DNA from: a virus
Lineage: Duplodnaviria > Heunggongvirae > Uroviricota > Caudoviricetes
Reading direction: 5' to 3' (one strand)
DNA length: 6,919 nucleotides
IMG/VR virus record: IMGVR_UViG_2737471841_000008
Span: 1-6,919 of that record
The notes under the pieces are model-generated. The model was given only the letters and a program-made list of their open reading frames with translations, ran no database searches and had not been told where the DNA came from. Both the position numbers and the translations under genes were made by a program. Shown piece after piece: positions 1 through 6,919 of this stretch; within the stretch, counting starts at the first letter, position 1, and every line of letters begins with the position of its first letter.

Positions 1-585
1 TTACTCCCTGACAGGGTTCGTAGGCCACTCAATATCAGGTGCAGTTGATGTATCAACACGGTTCAGCAACACCCGATATTTTTTCCAGGCTTCCAGCAAT
101 GAGGTTTCTTCCTCCGTTGCGATTTCCAGATCTACAGCATCCTGAAGCGGCGCTATATGCTCACTGGCTACCTGCATCAGGCTGTTTTTTGTTTCTTCCG
201 CCTCCCGGATCCGGAACAGTTTTTCTGCTTCCGTATCCTTCACCCAGGCTGTGCCGTTCCACTTCTGAAACTCCCCTTCCGGGGATAACCAGGTGACATT
301 TTCCGGTAATGAGCCGAGTTCAGAAATAAATAACGCGTCGCCGGAAGCCACGTCATAAACCGTTTTACCCCGATGATCTTCAACGAGATGCCACGATGAC
401 TCATCACTGTTGAAAACAGCCACGAAACCAGCCGGAATATCTGGCGGTGCAATATCGGTACTGTTTGCTGGCAGACCTGTATGAGGCGGAATATATGCAT
501 CACCTTCACCAATAAATTCATTAGTTCCGGACAGCAGATTATAAATTTTTATGGTCCGTGGTTGTTCACTCATTCTGAATGCCAT
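1..585 (-). CDS. tfa: Tail fibre assembly protein (lambda Tfa-like, 194 aa)
   Basis: Complete ORF, ATG at 585-583, TAA at 3-1. Translation [18 protein letters not shown]...[11 protein letters not shown] matches from recall the phage lambda Tfa protein of the same length, almost residue for residue. Its ATG shares one base with the stop of the upstream stf ORF (TAATG at 583-587). Confidence 0.9.
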
Positions 586-1799
586 TATGCAAGCCTCACA
601 ATGTAGTTAAATGCGATGTTTTTGACGGTGTTTTCCGCGTTACCAGCAGCGTTAACGGTGATGGTGTGTCCATGTGAGCCAATCGCAACAGAGTGCGTAT
701 GAGCACCAATACCGACAGTATGTGCGTGAGCACCTGCAGATGCAGCTGTGCCGCTGACACTATGAGTGTGCGCTCCTGCAGCACTTGTATTCACACTGGC
801 CGCAGACACTACCTTATGTACTGACCCATTTTGTGACCACTGGCTGACTGCTGATGCGCCTGTGACACTATGAGTATGGTTTCCGGCACTTGCGGCTGTA
901 CCGCTCACACTGTGCGTATGCGCCCCGATGTTATTCGTGGATTTAGTGCCGTAATCAAACGACGATGTGGTTTTCGTCCCCAAATCCGTACTGGATGCAC
1001 TGGCGCTGTGGGTGTGCGATTTAATGCCGTCCTGTTCCTGAGACAATACGGCCCGACCACTGGCAGGTTTGCCCTTAATCGTCCAGCCACGCATATCAGG
1101 GATCACGCCTGACGGATAAGCGGTTGCAAGTTTCGGGTAAGCGGATTTGTCAAAAGTCTGCCCCTGCATCAGGGCATAACCAGACGGAACGGTATCTGAT
1201 GGCCACGGGATTGGTGCGCCAGGCGGATAAAACTGCTCTGATGGCGTATAGAGTGAATAAACTGTACCGTCCGTTAACCCTTCCGGCTTATTAGCAGAAT
1301 ATGCTGGTGACGTATGAATAGTCACGCTGGCATTACTGGTATAATCCCATTGAATATTTACACCAGTCGCATAATTTCCGATTGCAACGTAAATATCGTA
1401 AGTATCACCAGATGTATTGACCCAGGCAAAATTTGTAAACCCTGTCGATGTGCGCTGCCATAAAGCACCAGTAATCCCCTTCGGATTACCATTACCTGCA
1501 CGCAAAACAAGTTCAGATATACCTGCCTGTTGAGGTGACCCCACGTTAAATCCCGCGCCACCAATCAACGTAATTGAAACAACAGAACTCGCCTGTGGCA
1601 TGGTTACCGTTGCTAATTTGAACCAACCAGCACCACCGCTGAATGACATTGTTGTTGAGTTAAGCGTACCAATATCTTTCGGCGTCAGTGTTATATCCGC
1701 TGAAAGCGCCTTACCATTCACCTTACGGGCAGAAGGTAACCCTGCGTCTGTCAGCACAGTAAAACCCGGTGTGCATCGTTTTTGATTATTCCCGCACAC
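585..1799 (-). CDS. stf: Side tail fibre protein, C-terminal receptor-binding portion (5'-truncated remnant; the track start is a GTG directly after an in-frame TGA)
   Basis: 404-aa ORF ending ...[15 protein letters not shown] with repeated His-rich [15 protein letters not shown] units, as in lambda Stf / T4 gp37-type fibre tips. The segment [19 protein letters not shown] is a typical internal tail-fibre repeat. Full-length Stf proteins are much longer; here the reading frame is closed by an in-frame TGA at 1800-1802 (minus strand), so the N-terminal tail-attachment part is absent. Confidence 0.72.
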
Positions 1800-2048
1800 T
1801 CACGCAGAAGGAATTCCCCGTCGGGCTACGGTCATGGTTAATGCGGGAATACGGCGACGATACAGCGCAGCTAAAAGGGTAATGGACAGAAAGAGCGGTT
1901 TATTTCATTCCACAGGATTCTGAGTGCCCCCCTCCTCCAATAGGCTGAGCATCCACCTATATAGTTTTAATTTTCATCAATCCATTTAACTATCGTTTAA
2001 TTGTTGTCACATAGGATTCTGCCGTTTTTAACAATGCAGGATAATAAG

Positions 2049-2342
2049 ATGAAAAAAATGTTGTTTTCTGCCGCTCTGGCAATGCTTATTACAGGATGTG
2101 CTCAACAGACGTTTACTGTTGGAAACAAACCGACAGCAGTAACACCAAAGGAAACCATCACCCATCACTTCTTCGTTTCGGGAATTGGACAGGAGAAAAC
2201 TGTTGATGCAGCCAAAATTTGTGGCGGCGCAGAAAATGTTGTTAAAACAGAAACCCAGCAAACATTCGTAAATGGATTGCTCGGTTTTATTACTTTAGGC
2301 ATTTATACTCCGCTGGAAGCGCGTGTGTATTGCTCACAATAA
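2049..2342 (+). CDS. borD: Bor lipoprotein (lambda Bor-like serum-resistance / lysogenic-conversion lipoprotein, 97 aa)
   Basis: ATG at 2049 preceded by AGGA (2038-2041); stop TAA at 2340-2342. Translation MKKMLFSAALAMLITGCAQQTFTV...TPLEARVYCSQ has a lipoprotein signal with lipobox LITGC and is near-identical from recall to lambda Bor. Transcribed opposite to the lysis genes, as in lambda and DLP12. The upstream part of the track ORF (from 2001) is rejected. Confidence 0.9.
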   Translation: MKKMLFSAALAMLITGCAQQTFTVGNKPTAVTPKETITHHFFVSGIGQEKTVDAAKICGGAENVVKTETQQTFVNGLLGFITLGIYTPLEARVYCSQ

Positions 2343-2373
2343 TTGCATGAGTTGCCCATCGATATGGGCAGCT

Positions 2374-2835
2374 CTATCTGCACTGCTCATTAATATACTT
2401 CTGGGTTCCTTCCAGTTGTTTTTGCATAGTGATCAGCCTCTCTCTGAGGGTGAAATAATCCCGTTCAGCGGTGTCTGCCAGTCGGGGGGAGGCTGCATTA
2501 TCCACGCCGGAGGCGGTGGTGGCTTCACGCACTGACTGACAGACTGCTTTGATGTGCAACCGACGACGACCAGCGGCAACATCATCACGCAGAGCATCAT
2601 TTTCAGCTTTCGCATCAGCTAACTCCTTCGTGTATTTTGCATCGAGCGCAGCAACATCACGCTGACGCATCTGCATGTCAGTAATTGCCGCGTTCGCCAG
2701 CTTCAGTTCTCTGGCATTTTTGTCGCGCTGGGCTTTGTAGGTAATGGCGTTATCACGGTAATGATTAACAGCCCATGACAGGCCGACGATGATGCAGATA
2801 ACCAGAGCGGAGATAATCGCGGTTACTCTGTTCAT
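2374..2835 (-). CDS. rzpD: Rz i-spanin (inner-membrane spanin subunit, 153 aa)
   Basis: [39 protein letters not shown]...KYINEQCR, essentially lambda Rz from recall, with an N-terminal transmembrane segment. ATG at 2835-2833 overlaps the endolysin stop (ATGA at 2832-2835). The track start at 2847 is an upstream GTG and is rejected. Confidence 0.9.
2433..2615 (-). CDS. rzoD: Rz1 o-spanin (outer-membrane lipoprotein spanin subunit, 60 aa), embedded in the +1 frame of Rz
   Basis: [24 protein letters not shown]...[29 protein letters not shown]: lipobox VVVGC and a proline-rich periplasmic part, matching lambda Rz1 from recall. Lies wholly inside the Rz coding sequence in another frame. Confidence 0.85.
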
Positions 2836-3329
2836 TGCTGACCCCACAAACAGATTTCACGCTCAATCTCACGACGAGTCATGAGACCTTTCCATTGCTT
2901 ACCGCCAGCATATGTCCAGCGACGTAGCTGATCACATGCGCCTTTGATATCGCCCTGGTTTATTTTGCGAAGAAGCGTCGATGTTCTGAAATTGCCAGCA
3001 CCCACGTTGTAAACGAATGAGTAAAAAGCGCCGCGCGTTGTTTCCGGTATATCGACTTTGATGTACGGGTTAATTTGTCTGGCGACAGTGGCAAGGTCTT
3101 TATTCAAGAGTGCTTTGCATTCTGCTTTGGTATACGTTTTACCGAGCATGATGTCTTTTCCTGTATGCCCGTGACATACAGTCCATACACCAACAATATC
3201 TTTATATGGTATGTAGCTGACACCTTCCAGACCATCGTCACCACTCGGACCAGTGATGAGCACAGACGCTATGGCAACAGCCCCACCACCAATAGCAGCT
3301 GCTACAGCCTTGCGTAATGATGGCGACAT
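2832..3329 (-). CDS. rrrD: SAR endolysin (phage 21 R-type lysozyme with N-terminal signal-anchor-release domain, 165 aa)
   Basis: [57 protein letters not shown]...: a Gly/Ala-rich weakly hydrophobic N-terminus followed by a lysozyme-like body, matching phage 21 R / DLP12 RrrD from recall. ATG at 3329-3327 overlaps the holin stop (TAATG). Confidence 0.9.
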
Positions 3330-3544
3330 TATTCACCTCTCGCAGCCTTGCGCTTATCTTCTTTAATCTTGAAATAAAGGTTTGTCAGGTACGTCAGCAG
3401 GCCAAATACCAGGCTACCCAGCACTCCAATTGCCGCCCACTGTGAGGGCGTGACTTTATCTAGCAGCTGTAAAAACCAGTACCCGGCACTACCTGCTGAG
3501 GTGCCATAGGCGACACCCGTTGTTAACTTATCCATGGATTTCAT
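3329..3544 (-). CDS. essD: Pinholin (phage 21 S-type class II holin, 71 aa) with dual-start motif Met1-Lys2-Ser3-Met4
   Basis: [71 protein letters not shown], near-identical from recall to phage 21 S. RBS GAGGTGG at 3549-3555 (minus strand). ATG codons at 3544-3542 and 3535-3533 give the 71/68 dual-start arrangement. Confidence 0.9.
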
Positions 3545-3667
3545 AACCCCACCTCGCAGACAAAGCGGGTGTAAATTGAGGGAATACTACGAAACGTAAC
3601 AGACTCGGAGTCAGTGAATAACTCAGGTATTGGGTTATCAGCTAATATCGAGACTCAAAAAATGGAA

Positions 3668-3689
3668 AAACCCGCTCGACGGCGGGTTT
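3668..3689 (-). terminator. Intrinsic terminator-like hairpin on the minus strand, ~125 nt upstream of the holin start (candidate tR'-type terminator)
   Basis: Plus strand aaacccgc-tcgacg-gcgggttt forms an 8-bp stem with a 6-nt loop. On the minus strand the stem is followed immediately by TTCCATTTTTT (RC of 3655-3667). On the plus strand it is not followed by a T-tract, so it is minus-strand specific. Confidence 0.45.
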
Positions 3690-3999
3690 AAGCTGTGTGA
3701 CGAAGTAACCACTCTTAACAGCATAACCAATTTTTTACGTACGTAAACCACTAAATGATATTTGCGAGAATGCTACCGAGTATTGAAAACACCACTACAA
3801 ATACATAAGCAAATCTCAACAAATAACCAACAAATTATTTCCAGTGTTATTTTTAGCTTATTTAAATTGAACCTTCAAATTATAGAGCGCTTATAAATAA
3901 CAGTCGTTAATATAAATTGGCTAATAGATTTATTTTTATTCAGCAAAGAGCTATGAATAGGATTCGATAGAAAAAAGTTCAGATAAAAATAGAGATCTA

Positions 4000-4116
4000 C
4001 TTCACAAATCAAACGAGAAACCAAAACTTACATCTTGAAATAATCACATTGATTAGATGAATATTTATCGCGCAGTGACATCATTTTTTAATAATAGTTC
4101 AAAAAAAGGGCTCACG
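4000..4116 (+). promoter_or_regulatory. Porin gene promoter / 5' leader region, containing an OmpR-box-like sequence CTTACATCTTGAAATAATCA (4027-4046)
   Basis: AT-rich region immediately upstream of the porin start. 4027-4046 resembles, from memory, the ompC C1 OmpR site TTTACATTTTGAAACATCTA (about 14 of 20 positions, the left half nearly perfect). Exact -35/-10 elements not resolved. Confidence 0.3.
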
Positions 4117-5214
4117 ATGAAAAAATTAACAGTGGCAATTTCTGCTGTAGCTGCATCAGTACTGATGGCGATGTCTGCTCAGGCAGCTGAAATTTATAAT
4201 AAAGACAGTAACAAGCTGGATCTGTACGGGAAAGTTAATGCTAAGCACTACTTCTCCTCTAATGATGCAGATGATGGTGATACTACTTATGCCCGTCTTG
4301 GCTTCAAAGGTGAAACCCAAATCAACGATCAACTGACTGGTTTCGGTCAGTGGGAATATGAATTCAAAGGCAACCGCGCTGAATCTCAAGGTTCCTCCAA
4401 AGACAAAACCCGTCTTGCATTTGCAGGCCTGAAATTCGGTGACTACGGCTCAATCGATTACGGCCGTAACTACGGTGTAGCATACGACATCGGTGCGTGG
4501 ACTGACGTTCTGCCAGAATTCGGTGGCGATACCTGGACCCAAACAGATGTGTTCATGACTGGTCGCACCACTGGTGTTGCAACCTATCGTAACAACGACT
4601 TCTTTGGTCTGGTTGATGGTCTGAACTTTGCTGCTCAGTACCAAGGCAAAAACGATCGTAGCGATTTCGATAACTACACTGAAGGTAACGGTGATGGCTT
4701 CGGTTTCTCTGCTACCTATGAATACGAAGGATTCGGTATCGGTGCAACTTATGCGAAATCTGATCGTACCGACACTCAAGTTAATGCAGGGAAAGTTCTT
4801 CCTGAAGTATTTGCTTCCGGTAAAAATGCAGAAGTTTGGGCCGCAGGTCTGAAATATGACGCTAACAACATTTACCTGGCCACTACCTATTCTGAAACCC
4901 AGAATATGACTGTATTTGCTGATCACTTCGTTGCTAATAAAGCCCAAAACTTCGAAGCTGTTGCACAATATCAGTTCGATTTCGGTCTGCGTCCGTCCGT
5001 TGCTTACCTGCAATCTAAAGGTAAGGATCTTGGAGTATGGGGCGATCAGGACTTAGTCAAATATGTTGATGTAGGTGCAACCTATTACTTCAACAAAAAT
5101 ATGTCTACTTTCGTTGATTACAAAATCAACCTGCTTGACAAAAATGACTTCACTAAAGCACTCGGTGTAAGCACTGATGACATCGTTGCTGTAGGTCTGG
5201 TTTACCAGTTCTAA
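4117..5214 (+). CDS. nmpC: Outer-membrane general porin, phage-encoded NmpC/Lc type (OmpC/OmpF/PhoE family), intact, 365 aa
   Basis: ATG at 4117 with RBS AGGG at 4107-4110; stop TAA at 5212-5214. Signal peptide [23 protein letters not shown], mature N-terminus [16 protein letters not shown], porin hallmarks throughout and the C-terminal VGLVYQF ending in Phe. The track start at 4057 (MNIYRAV...) is rejected because the signal peptide begins at 4117. Confidence 0.92.
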
Positions 5215-5230
5215 TCTGATTACGAAAAAG

Positions 5231-5264
5231 ATATGTTGCGGGAGGCGTTGCCTCCCCAACATAT
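5231..5264 (-). terminator. Strong intrinsic terminator on the minus strand just past the 3' end of the porin gene (alternative candidate tR' for Q-dependent late transcription)
   Basis: atatgttg-c-gggaggc / gttg / cctccc-caacatat forms an imperfect ~14-bp GC-rich stem with one bulged C. On the minus strand it is followed by CTTTTTCGTA (RC of 5221-5230); on the plus strand there is no T-tract after it. Confidence 0.45.
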
Positions 5265-5352
5265 AAGTGGCTCCCTCAAGCCACTTCCTTTAGAAGCACA
5301 ACCTTGCTTCTAACTATATAAACCTTCTGTTATATATTACCCTTTATTTTTG

Positions 5353-5386
5353 GGGGCGTCTCAACGCCCCATTTTTAATAATTTTT
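5353..5386 (+). terminator. Intrinsic terminator on the plus strand (likely porin mRNA terminator)
   Basis: gggggcg-tctcaa-cgcccc stem-loop (5353-5370) followed on the plus strand by ATTTTTAATAATTTTT. On the minus strand it is followed by an A-rich tract, so it is not a minus-strand terminator. Confidence 0.45.
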
Positions 5387-5403
5387 AGTAAACAATTGGC
5401 ATA

Positions 5404-5787
5404 TTAATTAGAGTTATTAACAACGATATCCATCTCTAACCGGATATCTAATGCCATTAACATCCCTTCAATTATGCCCTCAGCCTTCTGTAACCTTTTC
5501 CCGATATAACCATCAGAGCAGCAATGCTTACCTGCCAGTGACATGAATGTCATACCGACTACATAATAATCTACTAATAAATCGTGCAAATCGCTGTTGT
5601 TCTTTTTCAGACGGGCCATGCACCCGCAAATGATCATCGCGTCATCGTCACAACATTGCGGGCGAGATTTTACTTTTGAAGGAATTAATCCCTTAAAACC
5701 GGCGGCAATGGACGACCAGGTCACATCTTCATGATTATTAGCCGCCCACGCTCCCCAACGTTCAAGAACCATCTGAATATCACGCAT
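5404..5787 (-). CDS. quuD: Late-gene antiterminator Q (Phage_antitermQ family; DLP12 QuuD-like, 127 aa)
   Basis: [34 protein letters not shown]...[16 protein letters not shown]...[12 protein letters not shown]... with a Cys-rich putative Zn-binding cluster. ATG at 5787-5785 with GGAG 7 nt upstream. The track start at 5802 is a TTG and is rejected. Confidence 0.85.
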
Positions 5788-6117
5788 TAACTTTCTCCAC
5801 AAAATCAGGCCAGCACACCAATCGCCAGTGCGCGATCGATAAAACGAAATATCAGCTCAAGCTGGGAGCCATACTTCTCTTCAAATGCCACGGTAACCAG
5901 GTCCACCTCGCCTGATGTGGCTAAAAGCAGGCACATAACAGCTAAGTATTTTCAACCAGAGAGAATCCTTAGCGTTGTGGTGAATGCGGCTCAGCGCACG
6001 CGGGTTAAGGTTGAGGCTGACAGTCGACCTTCTGTGGATACCCACCCGCCTGGTGTGCAACCTTCGCCAGGCACCGGGAGGCACCCGGCACCACAACTTT
6101 ATGCTGTGTGTAGTCCT

Positions 6118-6164
6118 GGCGGTACCAGCTTGTACCCTTGCTTCCGGCTGGTACCGTCCTTTTT
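6118..6164 (+). terminator. Terminator-like hairpin on the plus strand inside the non-coding region upstream of the integrase-like ORF
   Basis: cggtaccagc (6120-6129) pairs perfectly with gctggtaccg (6147-6156), enclosing a 17-nt loop, and is followed by TCCTTTTT (6157-6164). No T-tract follows it on the minus strand. Confidence 0.35.
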
Positions 6165-6253
6165 ACAAAACAGAGAAGAGCATCACCGGACGACGGGCTC
6201 ATAACCCAATCCATCCGGGCGGCAGTCACCGCAGGTGTTCTTCTCTGTTTTGT
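6165..6253. repeat. Perfect 15-bp inverted repeat (acaaaacagagaaga / tcttctctgttttgt) separated by 59 nt, directly upstream of the integrase-like ORF
   Basis: Arms at 6165-6179 and 6239-6253 are exact reverse complements. An extra cacc/ggtg pairing (6184-6187 / 6234-6237) extends the stem and the intervening sequence contains further ccgg/ccgg pairing. Confidence 0.6.
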
Positions 6254-6301
6254 GGAGAAACTAACCGACCTTGCAGGGTCGATATGATGAGGAGCAGCAA
6301 A

Positions 6302-6919
6302 ATGGCTAGCGAACGCAGTACTGATGTGCAGGCATTTATCGGGGAGCTGGACGGCGGCGTATTTGAAACCAAAATCGGCGCAGTTCTCAGTGAAGTCGCT
6401 TCCGGTGTGATGAACACGAAAACCAAAGGTAAGGTCTCGCTCAACCTGGAAATCGAACCGTTTGATGAGAACCGAGTGAAAATCAAACACAAACTCTCAT
6501 ATGTTCGCCCGACTACCGCCTGTAAAGTGTTGCGTGATCAAATAGGCAAGCATCACAAATGGGTGTTTGTACATACCAAGGCGGCTAAGCGAGCAGATGG
6601 AACATCAACGCCTGCGGTCAGGAAGATGCGCATCGACAGCAAGACATCATGGCTATCAGCTTGTCGTCGTGCAGGAATTGAAGATTTCCGTTTCCATGAC
6701 CTCAGACACACCTGGGCAAGCTGGCTGATCCAGTCAGGCGTCCCATTATCTGTGCTTCAGGAAATGGGCGGATGGGAGTCCATAGAAATGGTTCGTAGGT
6801 ATGCTCACCTTGCGCCTAATCATTTGACAGAGCATGCAAGGAAAATAGACGACATTTTTGGTGATAATGTCCCAAATATGTCCCACTGTGGAATTATGGA
6901 GGATATAAAGAAGGCGTAA
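6302..6919 (+). CDS. Integrase-like ORF (205 aa): unrecognised ~85-aa N-terminal part fused in frame to a tyrosine-recombinase C-terminal catalytic tail; probable integrase remnant
   Basis: ATG at 6302 with AGGAG at 6290-6294; stop TAA at 6917-6919. The C-terminal half ...[60 protein letters not shown] carries box II H-x-x-R (HDLRHT), the conserved Trp, and the catalytic Tyr in RYAHL. No box I TGxRxxE motif is present in the N-terminal part. The same frame stays open back to an ATG at 5984, but that stretch translates to Arg/Cys/Trp-rich sequence that does not look protein-like. Confidence 0.6.

Follow-up and report, generated by a model that had tools for sequence, protein, structure and literature searches.

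Layout of the remnant and of its terminal ORF

The window, i.e., the whole stretch of 6,919 bp analysed here, is the inner end of a strongly reduced lambdoid prophage of E. coli, and its features are collected in Table 1. Between the bor side and the prophage end (window positions 1–2342; positions 1–4041 of locus L003), head, tail and terminase genes are all absent, and in the full contigs a methyltransferase gene and then an AraC-type (appY-like) gene lie beyond tfa. Within the tfa-like ORF, positions 44–242 on the minus strand give a full-length match to Rfam IS009 (RF02111), scoring 222.7 bits against a gathering score of 117. The product of the porin gene has 365 aa in related contigs, and 3' of the nmpC-like porin gene a strong terminator-like hairpin (GGGGCGT-CTCA-ACGCCCC, followed by a T run) is present at 5353–5370 on the plus strand.

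Table 1. Coordinates of genes, gene fragments, junctions and motifs in the 6,919-bp window.
Feature	Position	Strand	Basis or remark
tfa-like tail-fibre assembly ORF	1-585	-	
Tail-fibre remnant, His-rich GxHxHS repeats	585-1799	-	
bor		+	abuts tail-fibre genes
Rz (Rz1 embedded), R, S	2374-3544	-	
nmpC-like porin gene, intact	4057-5214	+	
quuD (Q antiterminator)	5404-5802	-	Pfam Phage_antitermQ, E 1e-53; RefSeq start would be 5787
DUF968 gene, 3' remnant, last 30 codons	5805-5895	-	Pfam DUF968 positions 145-171 of 171; 100% identical to D6
TA junction of second deletion, 7,298 bp relative to D6	5894-5895	+	comparison with D6
Small upstream ORF, frameshifted hypothetical in RefSeq	5977-6287	+	mapped from the annotation of L002/L011
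Shine-Dalgarno-like GAGGAG of yfdP, 7 nt 5' of ATG	6289-6294	+	read from sequence
Chimeric ORF yfdP'::'intD, 205 codons + stop	6302-6919	+	ORF list and sequence; ATG 6302, TAA 6917-6919
yfdP 5' fragment, nt 1-212	6302-6513	+	0 nt differences from yfdP of D6
TA junction of 3,347-bp deletion (intD nt 759-760), recurrent breakpoint R1	6514-6515	+	base-by-base comparison with both parents
intD 3' fragment, nt 761-1164, codons 254-387 + stop	6516-6919	+	0 nt differences from intD of D6
TA of R2, intD nt 831-832, intact here	6586-6587	+	
AA of R3, intD nt 868-869, intact here	6623-6624	+	
H-D-L-R, box II; fusion H132, R135 = IntD H314, R317	6695-6706	+	motif mapping; alignment with HP1 Int and XerA
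W158 (His-III position, IntD W340) through Tyr nucleophile Y167 (IntD Y349)	6773-6802	+	

The terminal ORF is an in-frame fusion, YfdP(1–71)-IntD(254–387), which retains 59% of YfdP, the final 35% of IntD, and the ribosome-binding site and start codon of yfdP. The yfdP fragment together with the shared T at 6514 supplies YfdP codons 1–71 of 120. An earlier interpretation made from the letters alone (hereafter the sequence-only reading) had divided the protein into a tail of ~120 aa and an N-terminal part of ~85 aa; the actual split is 134 + 71. It had also placed the ORF next to Q; Q lies ~500 bp away, with the DUF968 remnant and the frameshifted ORF in between.

The small upstream ORF is the native 5' neighbour of yfdP, and its frame at 6138–6284 matches phrog_33599. 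The frame of the fusion is itself open upstream to 5984, giving a 311-aa ORF with 106 extra codons; this longer ORF was rejected as a real gene, the extra 106 aa matching no family in Pfam or PHROGs. An equivalent long ORF is annotated in phage Kati, and RefSeq has a separate frameshifted ORF, in line with the phrog_33599 frame.

Parent genes, deletions and chromosomal site

Positions 6302–6514 correspond to yfdP nt 1–213 and positions 6514–6919 to intD nt 759–1164, each with 0 differences from strain D6, in which yfdP and intD share one prophage. The join is a TA dinucleotide found in both parents, i.e., an overlap of 2 nt, and the two breakpoints lie 3,347 bp apart in D6, E10 and phage Kati, where the undeleted order is quuD ... 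small ORF-yfdP-yfdQ-yfdR-two small genes-xis-like remnant-intD-tRNA-Arg. Aligned with the E10 and D6 prophages, the window consists of collinear blocks with a break at 6510–6519. The explanation preferred by the sequence-only reading, namely fusion of the int 3' end with upstream sequence through a deletion, is thus borne out by parents that differ from the fusion by 0 nt in D6.

When the two halves are searched separately, the N-terminal part belongs to the YfdP family and the tail to integrase families. Residues 1–71 match phrog_204 (unknown function; positions 18–89 of 143, E 7e-32) and also phrog_33467 in PHROGs, and the tail matches the integrase families phrog_1 and phrog_216. Pfam and NCBIfam assign no family to residues 1–71, and Pfam at E ≤ 1 returns only a sub-threshold GLOD4_N; a precomputed contig-index table gives PF27127 (YfdP) and PF00589 for the fusion product. 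The faint resemblance of the N-terminus to P4-type arm-binding domains that had been suggested is not retained, since residues 1–71 are YfdP and show no such profile similarity.

YfdP is a protein of the CPS-53/KplE1 prophage with no known function. Residues 1–71 of the fusion are identical to YfdP of the WP_000135682.1 type, with the same start codon and ribosome-binding site; the C-terminal 49 residues are absent, and the match to the family therefore covers residues 1–71 of 120 and not the full length. At the nucleotide level, the yfdP part is 99.7% identical to phage Kati and other phages. Similarly, the last 134 residues (406 nt) are identical to those encoded by intD of D6, and the 3' 410 nt alone are 99.8% identical to the intD 3' end beside tRNA-Arg in 2,778 complete E. 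coli genomes.

The chromosomal site is that of a DLP12-type prophage. Contigs that match the window at 100% identity continue past the stop codon for 16 nt to a tRNA-Arg(TCT) gene, encoded on the opposite strand, and from there into fimZ, the sfm operon and folD; int thus reads toward the tRNA gene, with fimZ/sfm on one side and the AraC-type gene on the far side. These neighbours agree with the attL-end position of int proposed from the sequence alone, and the tRNA gene is found where that reading had suggested looking, beyond position 6919. The fusion has the same position and orientation as IntD at argU/fimZ; lacking residues 1–253, it would not be a functional member of that group. It has been reported that DLP12 integrates at the 3' end of argU (Lindsey et al. 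1989, as cited in PMC6379469) and that it is the most prevalent grounded or cryptic element in E. coli, being found in 74% of 638 strains (PMC6379469). In such grounded prophages, int/xis function has likewise been lost by deletion or IS insertion, fixing the remnant (PMC6379469). The DLP12 prophage of K-12 is less reduced than the remnant in the window, which is without the early region and has bor abutting the tail-fibre genes.

A second deletion, of the size given in Table 1, has its junction between the DUF968 remnant and the small ORF that precedes yfdP, and here too a TA is common to both parents. The genes lost are most of DUF968, KilA-N, rusA, the replication genes, cro and a cI-like repressor gene.

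The two losses can be arranged in a proposed course of decay. The ancestor would have carried an early-left operon yfdP-yfdQ-yfdR-(two small genes)-xis-like-intD directed toward argU, as in D6 and Kati. One IS-free illegitimate recombination between two TA dinucleotides would then have removed 3,347 bp in situ, joining yfdP codon 71 in frame to intD codon 254, and the inactive Int together with the loss of the xis-like gene would have locked the remnant in the chromosome. The second deletion, of 7,298 bp and again at TA, would have taken away the repressor/cro region, the early promoters and the replication genes.

Reuse of breakpoints within intD

Truncation of intD is commonplace, since independent chimeras and IS-cut copies occur at the same locus. 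Bet::IntD chimeras are represented by P0009, P0010, P0037 and P0099, the Xis-like::IntD form by P0004, YfdQ::IntD by P0023, and a fusion with an unnamed ORF by P0032; all placeable intD chimeras adjoin fimZ. The Bet, YfdQ and Xis-like chimeras have the same int tail and the same site as the fusion in the window, are IS-free and show 2–3 nt of microhomology; three of them use int nt 759 as the fusion does, and some use nt 831 or 868, whereas their left partners and prophage backgrounds differ from those of the fusion. P0037 is far more widespread, with 160 index blocks, and P0009 is carried by the complete genome CP042893.1. IS-free joins of intD also occur with a capsid protease gene (nt 882) and with the replication P gene (nt ~992–997). 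Meanwhile, in complete genomes with an IS still present at the cut intD, the element is IS5 at nt 151 (CTAG target), ISEc8 at nt 421 or an IS3-family element at nt 637. In about 5% of the complete genomes that carry intD, the gene is broken no more than 300 nt from the fusion site (2,878 matches, 2,722 of them with at least 80% coverage).

Among the loci with recurrent breakpoints (L012–L020, L023, L025 and L031), the IS-free joins fall repeatedly on three positions. R1, at nt 759 (GA-TA-CCGCC), has at least six different left partners, the window included; the others are bet codon 197, bet codon 35, the xis-like gene, a lambda-like small ORF and non-coding sequence. R2, at nt 831 (GGC-TA-AGCG), has three left flanks, and R3, at nt 868 (AGG-AA-GATG), has two IS-free flanks and one IS end. 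The int tail has two SNP haplotypes, and both R1 and R2 are found on each of them; ten joins on three positions were never obtained by chance in simulations. Since other deletions also end at this int breakpoint, calling the fusion the result of a random deletion would not describe its origin fully. The R2 forms may have arisen from R1 forms by a further deletion of 72 bp, because P0009 (bet codon 197 joined at R1) and P0037 (bet codon 197 joined at R2) share the left junction.

A search of IMG/VR for broken copies, defined by a non-native base followed by the native 30-mer, gave four for R1, one for R3 and none for R2; three unused TA sites had 0 broken copies each against at least 120 intact copies in the same collection, and no broken R1 copy was found when metagenomes were scanned. 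Terminal repeats of the IS3 family (…ccggggcggttca) lie directly against intD at nt 868 (L024 1–60) and nt 637 (L026 1440–1500), and the IS3-family end at nt 868 coincides with the IS-free breakpoint R3. P0079, considered as a further IS-free R3 chimera, was rejected, because the sequence at its contig edge is the end of an IS3-family element.

In joins with both parents known, the overlap at R1 and R2 is TA or TAA and that at R3 is AA, and these joins hold despite a longer microhomology one base away (ACCGC in yfdP, AACGAT in bet). A 6-bp stem, CCGCCT (6516–6521) with AGGCGG (6579–6584), is predicted exactly between the TAs of R1 and R2; on either strand, both the MFE and the centroid fold contain it, and a GC-rich hairpin, GCGCCA...TGGCGC, lies 8 nt to the left of R1. 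The stem region is no more stable than shuffled sequences (z −0.9 and −1.1), and a stem-loop as the cause of the breakpoints is suggestive only.

Several processes have been considered as the source of these joins. The preferred, though unproven, account is that sites of pausing or secondary structure in intD generate the fixed ends, which then join any upstream site able to pair over 2–3 nt. A wider proposal, which we put forward tentatively, is that intD possibly holds a sequence-specific breakpoint hot spot, generated by an unrecognised process that repeatedly disables prophages at argU, with the present ORF as a by-product; such a process could be fork pausing with template switching at the stem-loop, or the action of a TA-directed nuclease or recombinase.

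It may also be asked whether the fusion was made by a TA-acting site-specific or transposase-type enzyme and not by general illegitimate recombination, the candidates being a serine recombinase that crosses over at TA, an IS that targets TA and is later excised, and RusA-type cleavage beside CC. The two deletions in the window are joined on TA, as are, without exception, the nine sequenced joins at nt 759 and 831, although TA makes up just 3.8% of the dinucleotide positions in intD; TA is used even where the longer microhomology would have been available 1 nt away, and the many left partners of nt 759 contrast with the absence of broken copies at the unused TA sites. We nevertheless regard an enzymatic origin of this kind as rather unlikely. 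A 'TA-only' rule is contradicted by R3, where the joins fall on AA, and by the join at nt 882, which is off TA. No IS or recombinase site is left at the IS-free intD joins, and the left sites have no visible common extended motif, whereas the IS-mediated truncations in intD retain their IS. The IS5 target YTAR fits about 5 of the 11 parent TA sites with a readable 4-mer, including R2 and several left sites, but neither R1 nor either site of the first junction, and an IS5 origin was rejected. Similarly, an origin from Int pseudo-att activity was rejected, because the att core and argU show no similarity to intD nt 720–900 beyond shuffled controls. If true, an enzymatic origin would alter how the deletion arose and not the identity of the ORF.

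Activity, expression and distribution of the fusion

The tyrosine-recombinase tail recognised from the sequence alone, with HDLRHT and a catalytic Tyr, is present: Y167 lies in RRYAHL, and Pfam Phage_integrase matches residues 59–173 with 90.2 bits against a cut-off of 27.1, but only over profile positions 65–171 of 172 (75–171 when the tail is searched alone). NCBIfam recombinase matches to the fusion are all far under their cut-offs. Full-length IntD was aligned with HP1 integrase, XerA and XerD to map the motifs. The box I arginine of IntD is R215 (ATGLRKS) and the beta-hairpin lysine is K242 (ESKSNR), and both are in the deleted part, in agreement with the earlier remark that the box I arginine is missing. 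Of the complete catalytic set (Arg-I, Lys, His-II, Arg-II, His/Trp-III, Tyr), two of six residues are consequently lost, and H314, R317, W340 and Y349 survive. The arm-type and core-binding regions ahead of the catalytic part are also absent, residues 1–71 not being integrase.

A tyrosine recombinase fragment of such a kind is expected to be without recombinase activity. Because the arm- and core-binding regions, Arg215 and Lys242 are missing, we infer that the fusion product would be unable to bind att DNA or catalyse strand exchange. The AlphaFold2 model of the fusion, built on a 16-row alignment, is not confident (pLDDT 44.6, pTM 0.22) and is uninformative on function.

As for expression, the fusion is without its native promoter, because the second deletion took the early promoter region. 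A simple consensus scan found no sigma-70-like site in 5700–6919, and in 3500–6320 it found two, against six expected by chance. In K-12, it has been reported that an SrsR-bound spacer drives yfdPQ of CPS-53 (PMC9181523). The region upstream of the fusion differs from this K-12 yfdO/yfdP spacer (PMC9181523), and control of the ORF by the K-12 yfdPQ promoter and SrsR was rejected, as no SrsR boxes are found upstream of it. The fusion is thus probably poorly expressed or not expressed, judging from its sequence context; translation would be possible if any transcript crosses it, since the fusion is in frame and has a good Shine-Dalgarno sequence and a start codon.

The exact 205-aa protein is encoded on 17–19 draft E. 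coli contigs, where NCBI labels it 'site-specific integrase', and several of these contigs are 100% identical to the entire window. All known fusion copies are identical in sequence. The 90%-identity cluster contains one junction only; P0002 and P0003 share it and differ in that a later start codon has been called for each. A megablast of 5700–6919 did not recover the junction from any of 5,426 complete E. coli genomes, in which the matches stop at ~6519, inside the ORF. Since the contigs are 100% identical over 6.9 kb, the carriers appear to be one recent clone. In a collection of 5.8 billion proteins, the combination of YfdP with an integrase tail was found nowhere else among the best 120 of 5,823 homologues; the homologues listed match only via the integrase tail, and the sole entry with the junction is the query's own cluster. 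The lack of a wider family among these homologues and the identical, clonal-looking draft copies point to a recent accident and not to a domesticated protein.

With a probability of roughly 95%, the ORF is a non-functional fusion, effectively a pseudogene, that arose by the decay of a DLP12-type lambdoid prophage at argU of E. coli. The ORF itself is an ordinary product of prophage decay and is already in public databases.

The domesticated mini-recombinase entertained in the sequence-only reading finds no diverged family of ~205 aa with this architecture among those best 120 homologues. In its more specific form, the ORF would encode an expressed mini protein, either dominant-negative against Int tetramers of incoming IntD-type phages, acting through the C-terminal tail and the Tyr-bearing helices, or a regulator based on the N-terminal part of YfdP. 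An in-frame fusion with an intact ribosome-binding site and start codon, in which box II, Trp and Tyr are kept and which recurs unchanged on about 19 contigs, is compatible with such a protein. We consider it very improbable, however, as neither half is a complete domain, the native promoter region has been lost and no consensus promoter was found, and the carriers are limited to contigs 100% identical over 6.9 kb, with none among the 5,426 complete genomes. In addition, the open frame is incidental, given that in-frame and out-of-frame chimeras occur at the same breakpoint. A chimeric contig produced by assembly or sequencing might be suspected because all carriers are draft assemblies and no complete genome has the junction, but the probability of such an artefact is negligible in view of at least 19 contigs of up to 166 kb from separate NCBI and Logan assemblies, a 2-nt overlap at the join that is far under any assembler k-mer, and analogous chimeras at the same int position in complete genomes, such as P0009 in CP042893.1.

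The pseudogene interpretation bears on how such ORFs are named and counted. The fusion (P0001) appears in databases as 'site-specific integrase', P0009 and P0037 (Bet::IntD) as 'phage recombination protein Bet', and P0023 (YfdQ::IntD) as 'DUF2303 family protein'. Because they are deletion chimeras, such ORFs should be flagged as pseudogenes and excluded from integrase counts in mobility prediction. For the biology of E. coli prophages, the locus is a textbook case of prophage fixation, in which the 5' part of int, the xis-like gene, immunity and replication have been lost and the lysis genes, bor, the porin gene and Q have been kept, and the nucleotide-precise reuse of breakpoints could open to experiment the mechanism by which IS-free deletions arise in decaying prophages.
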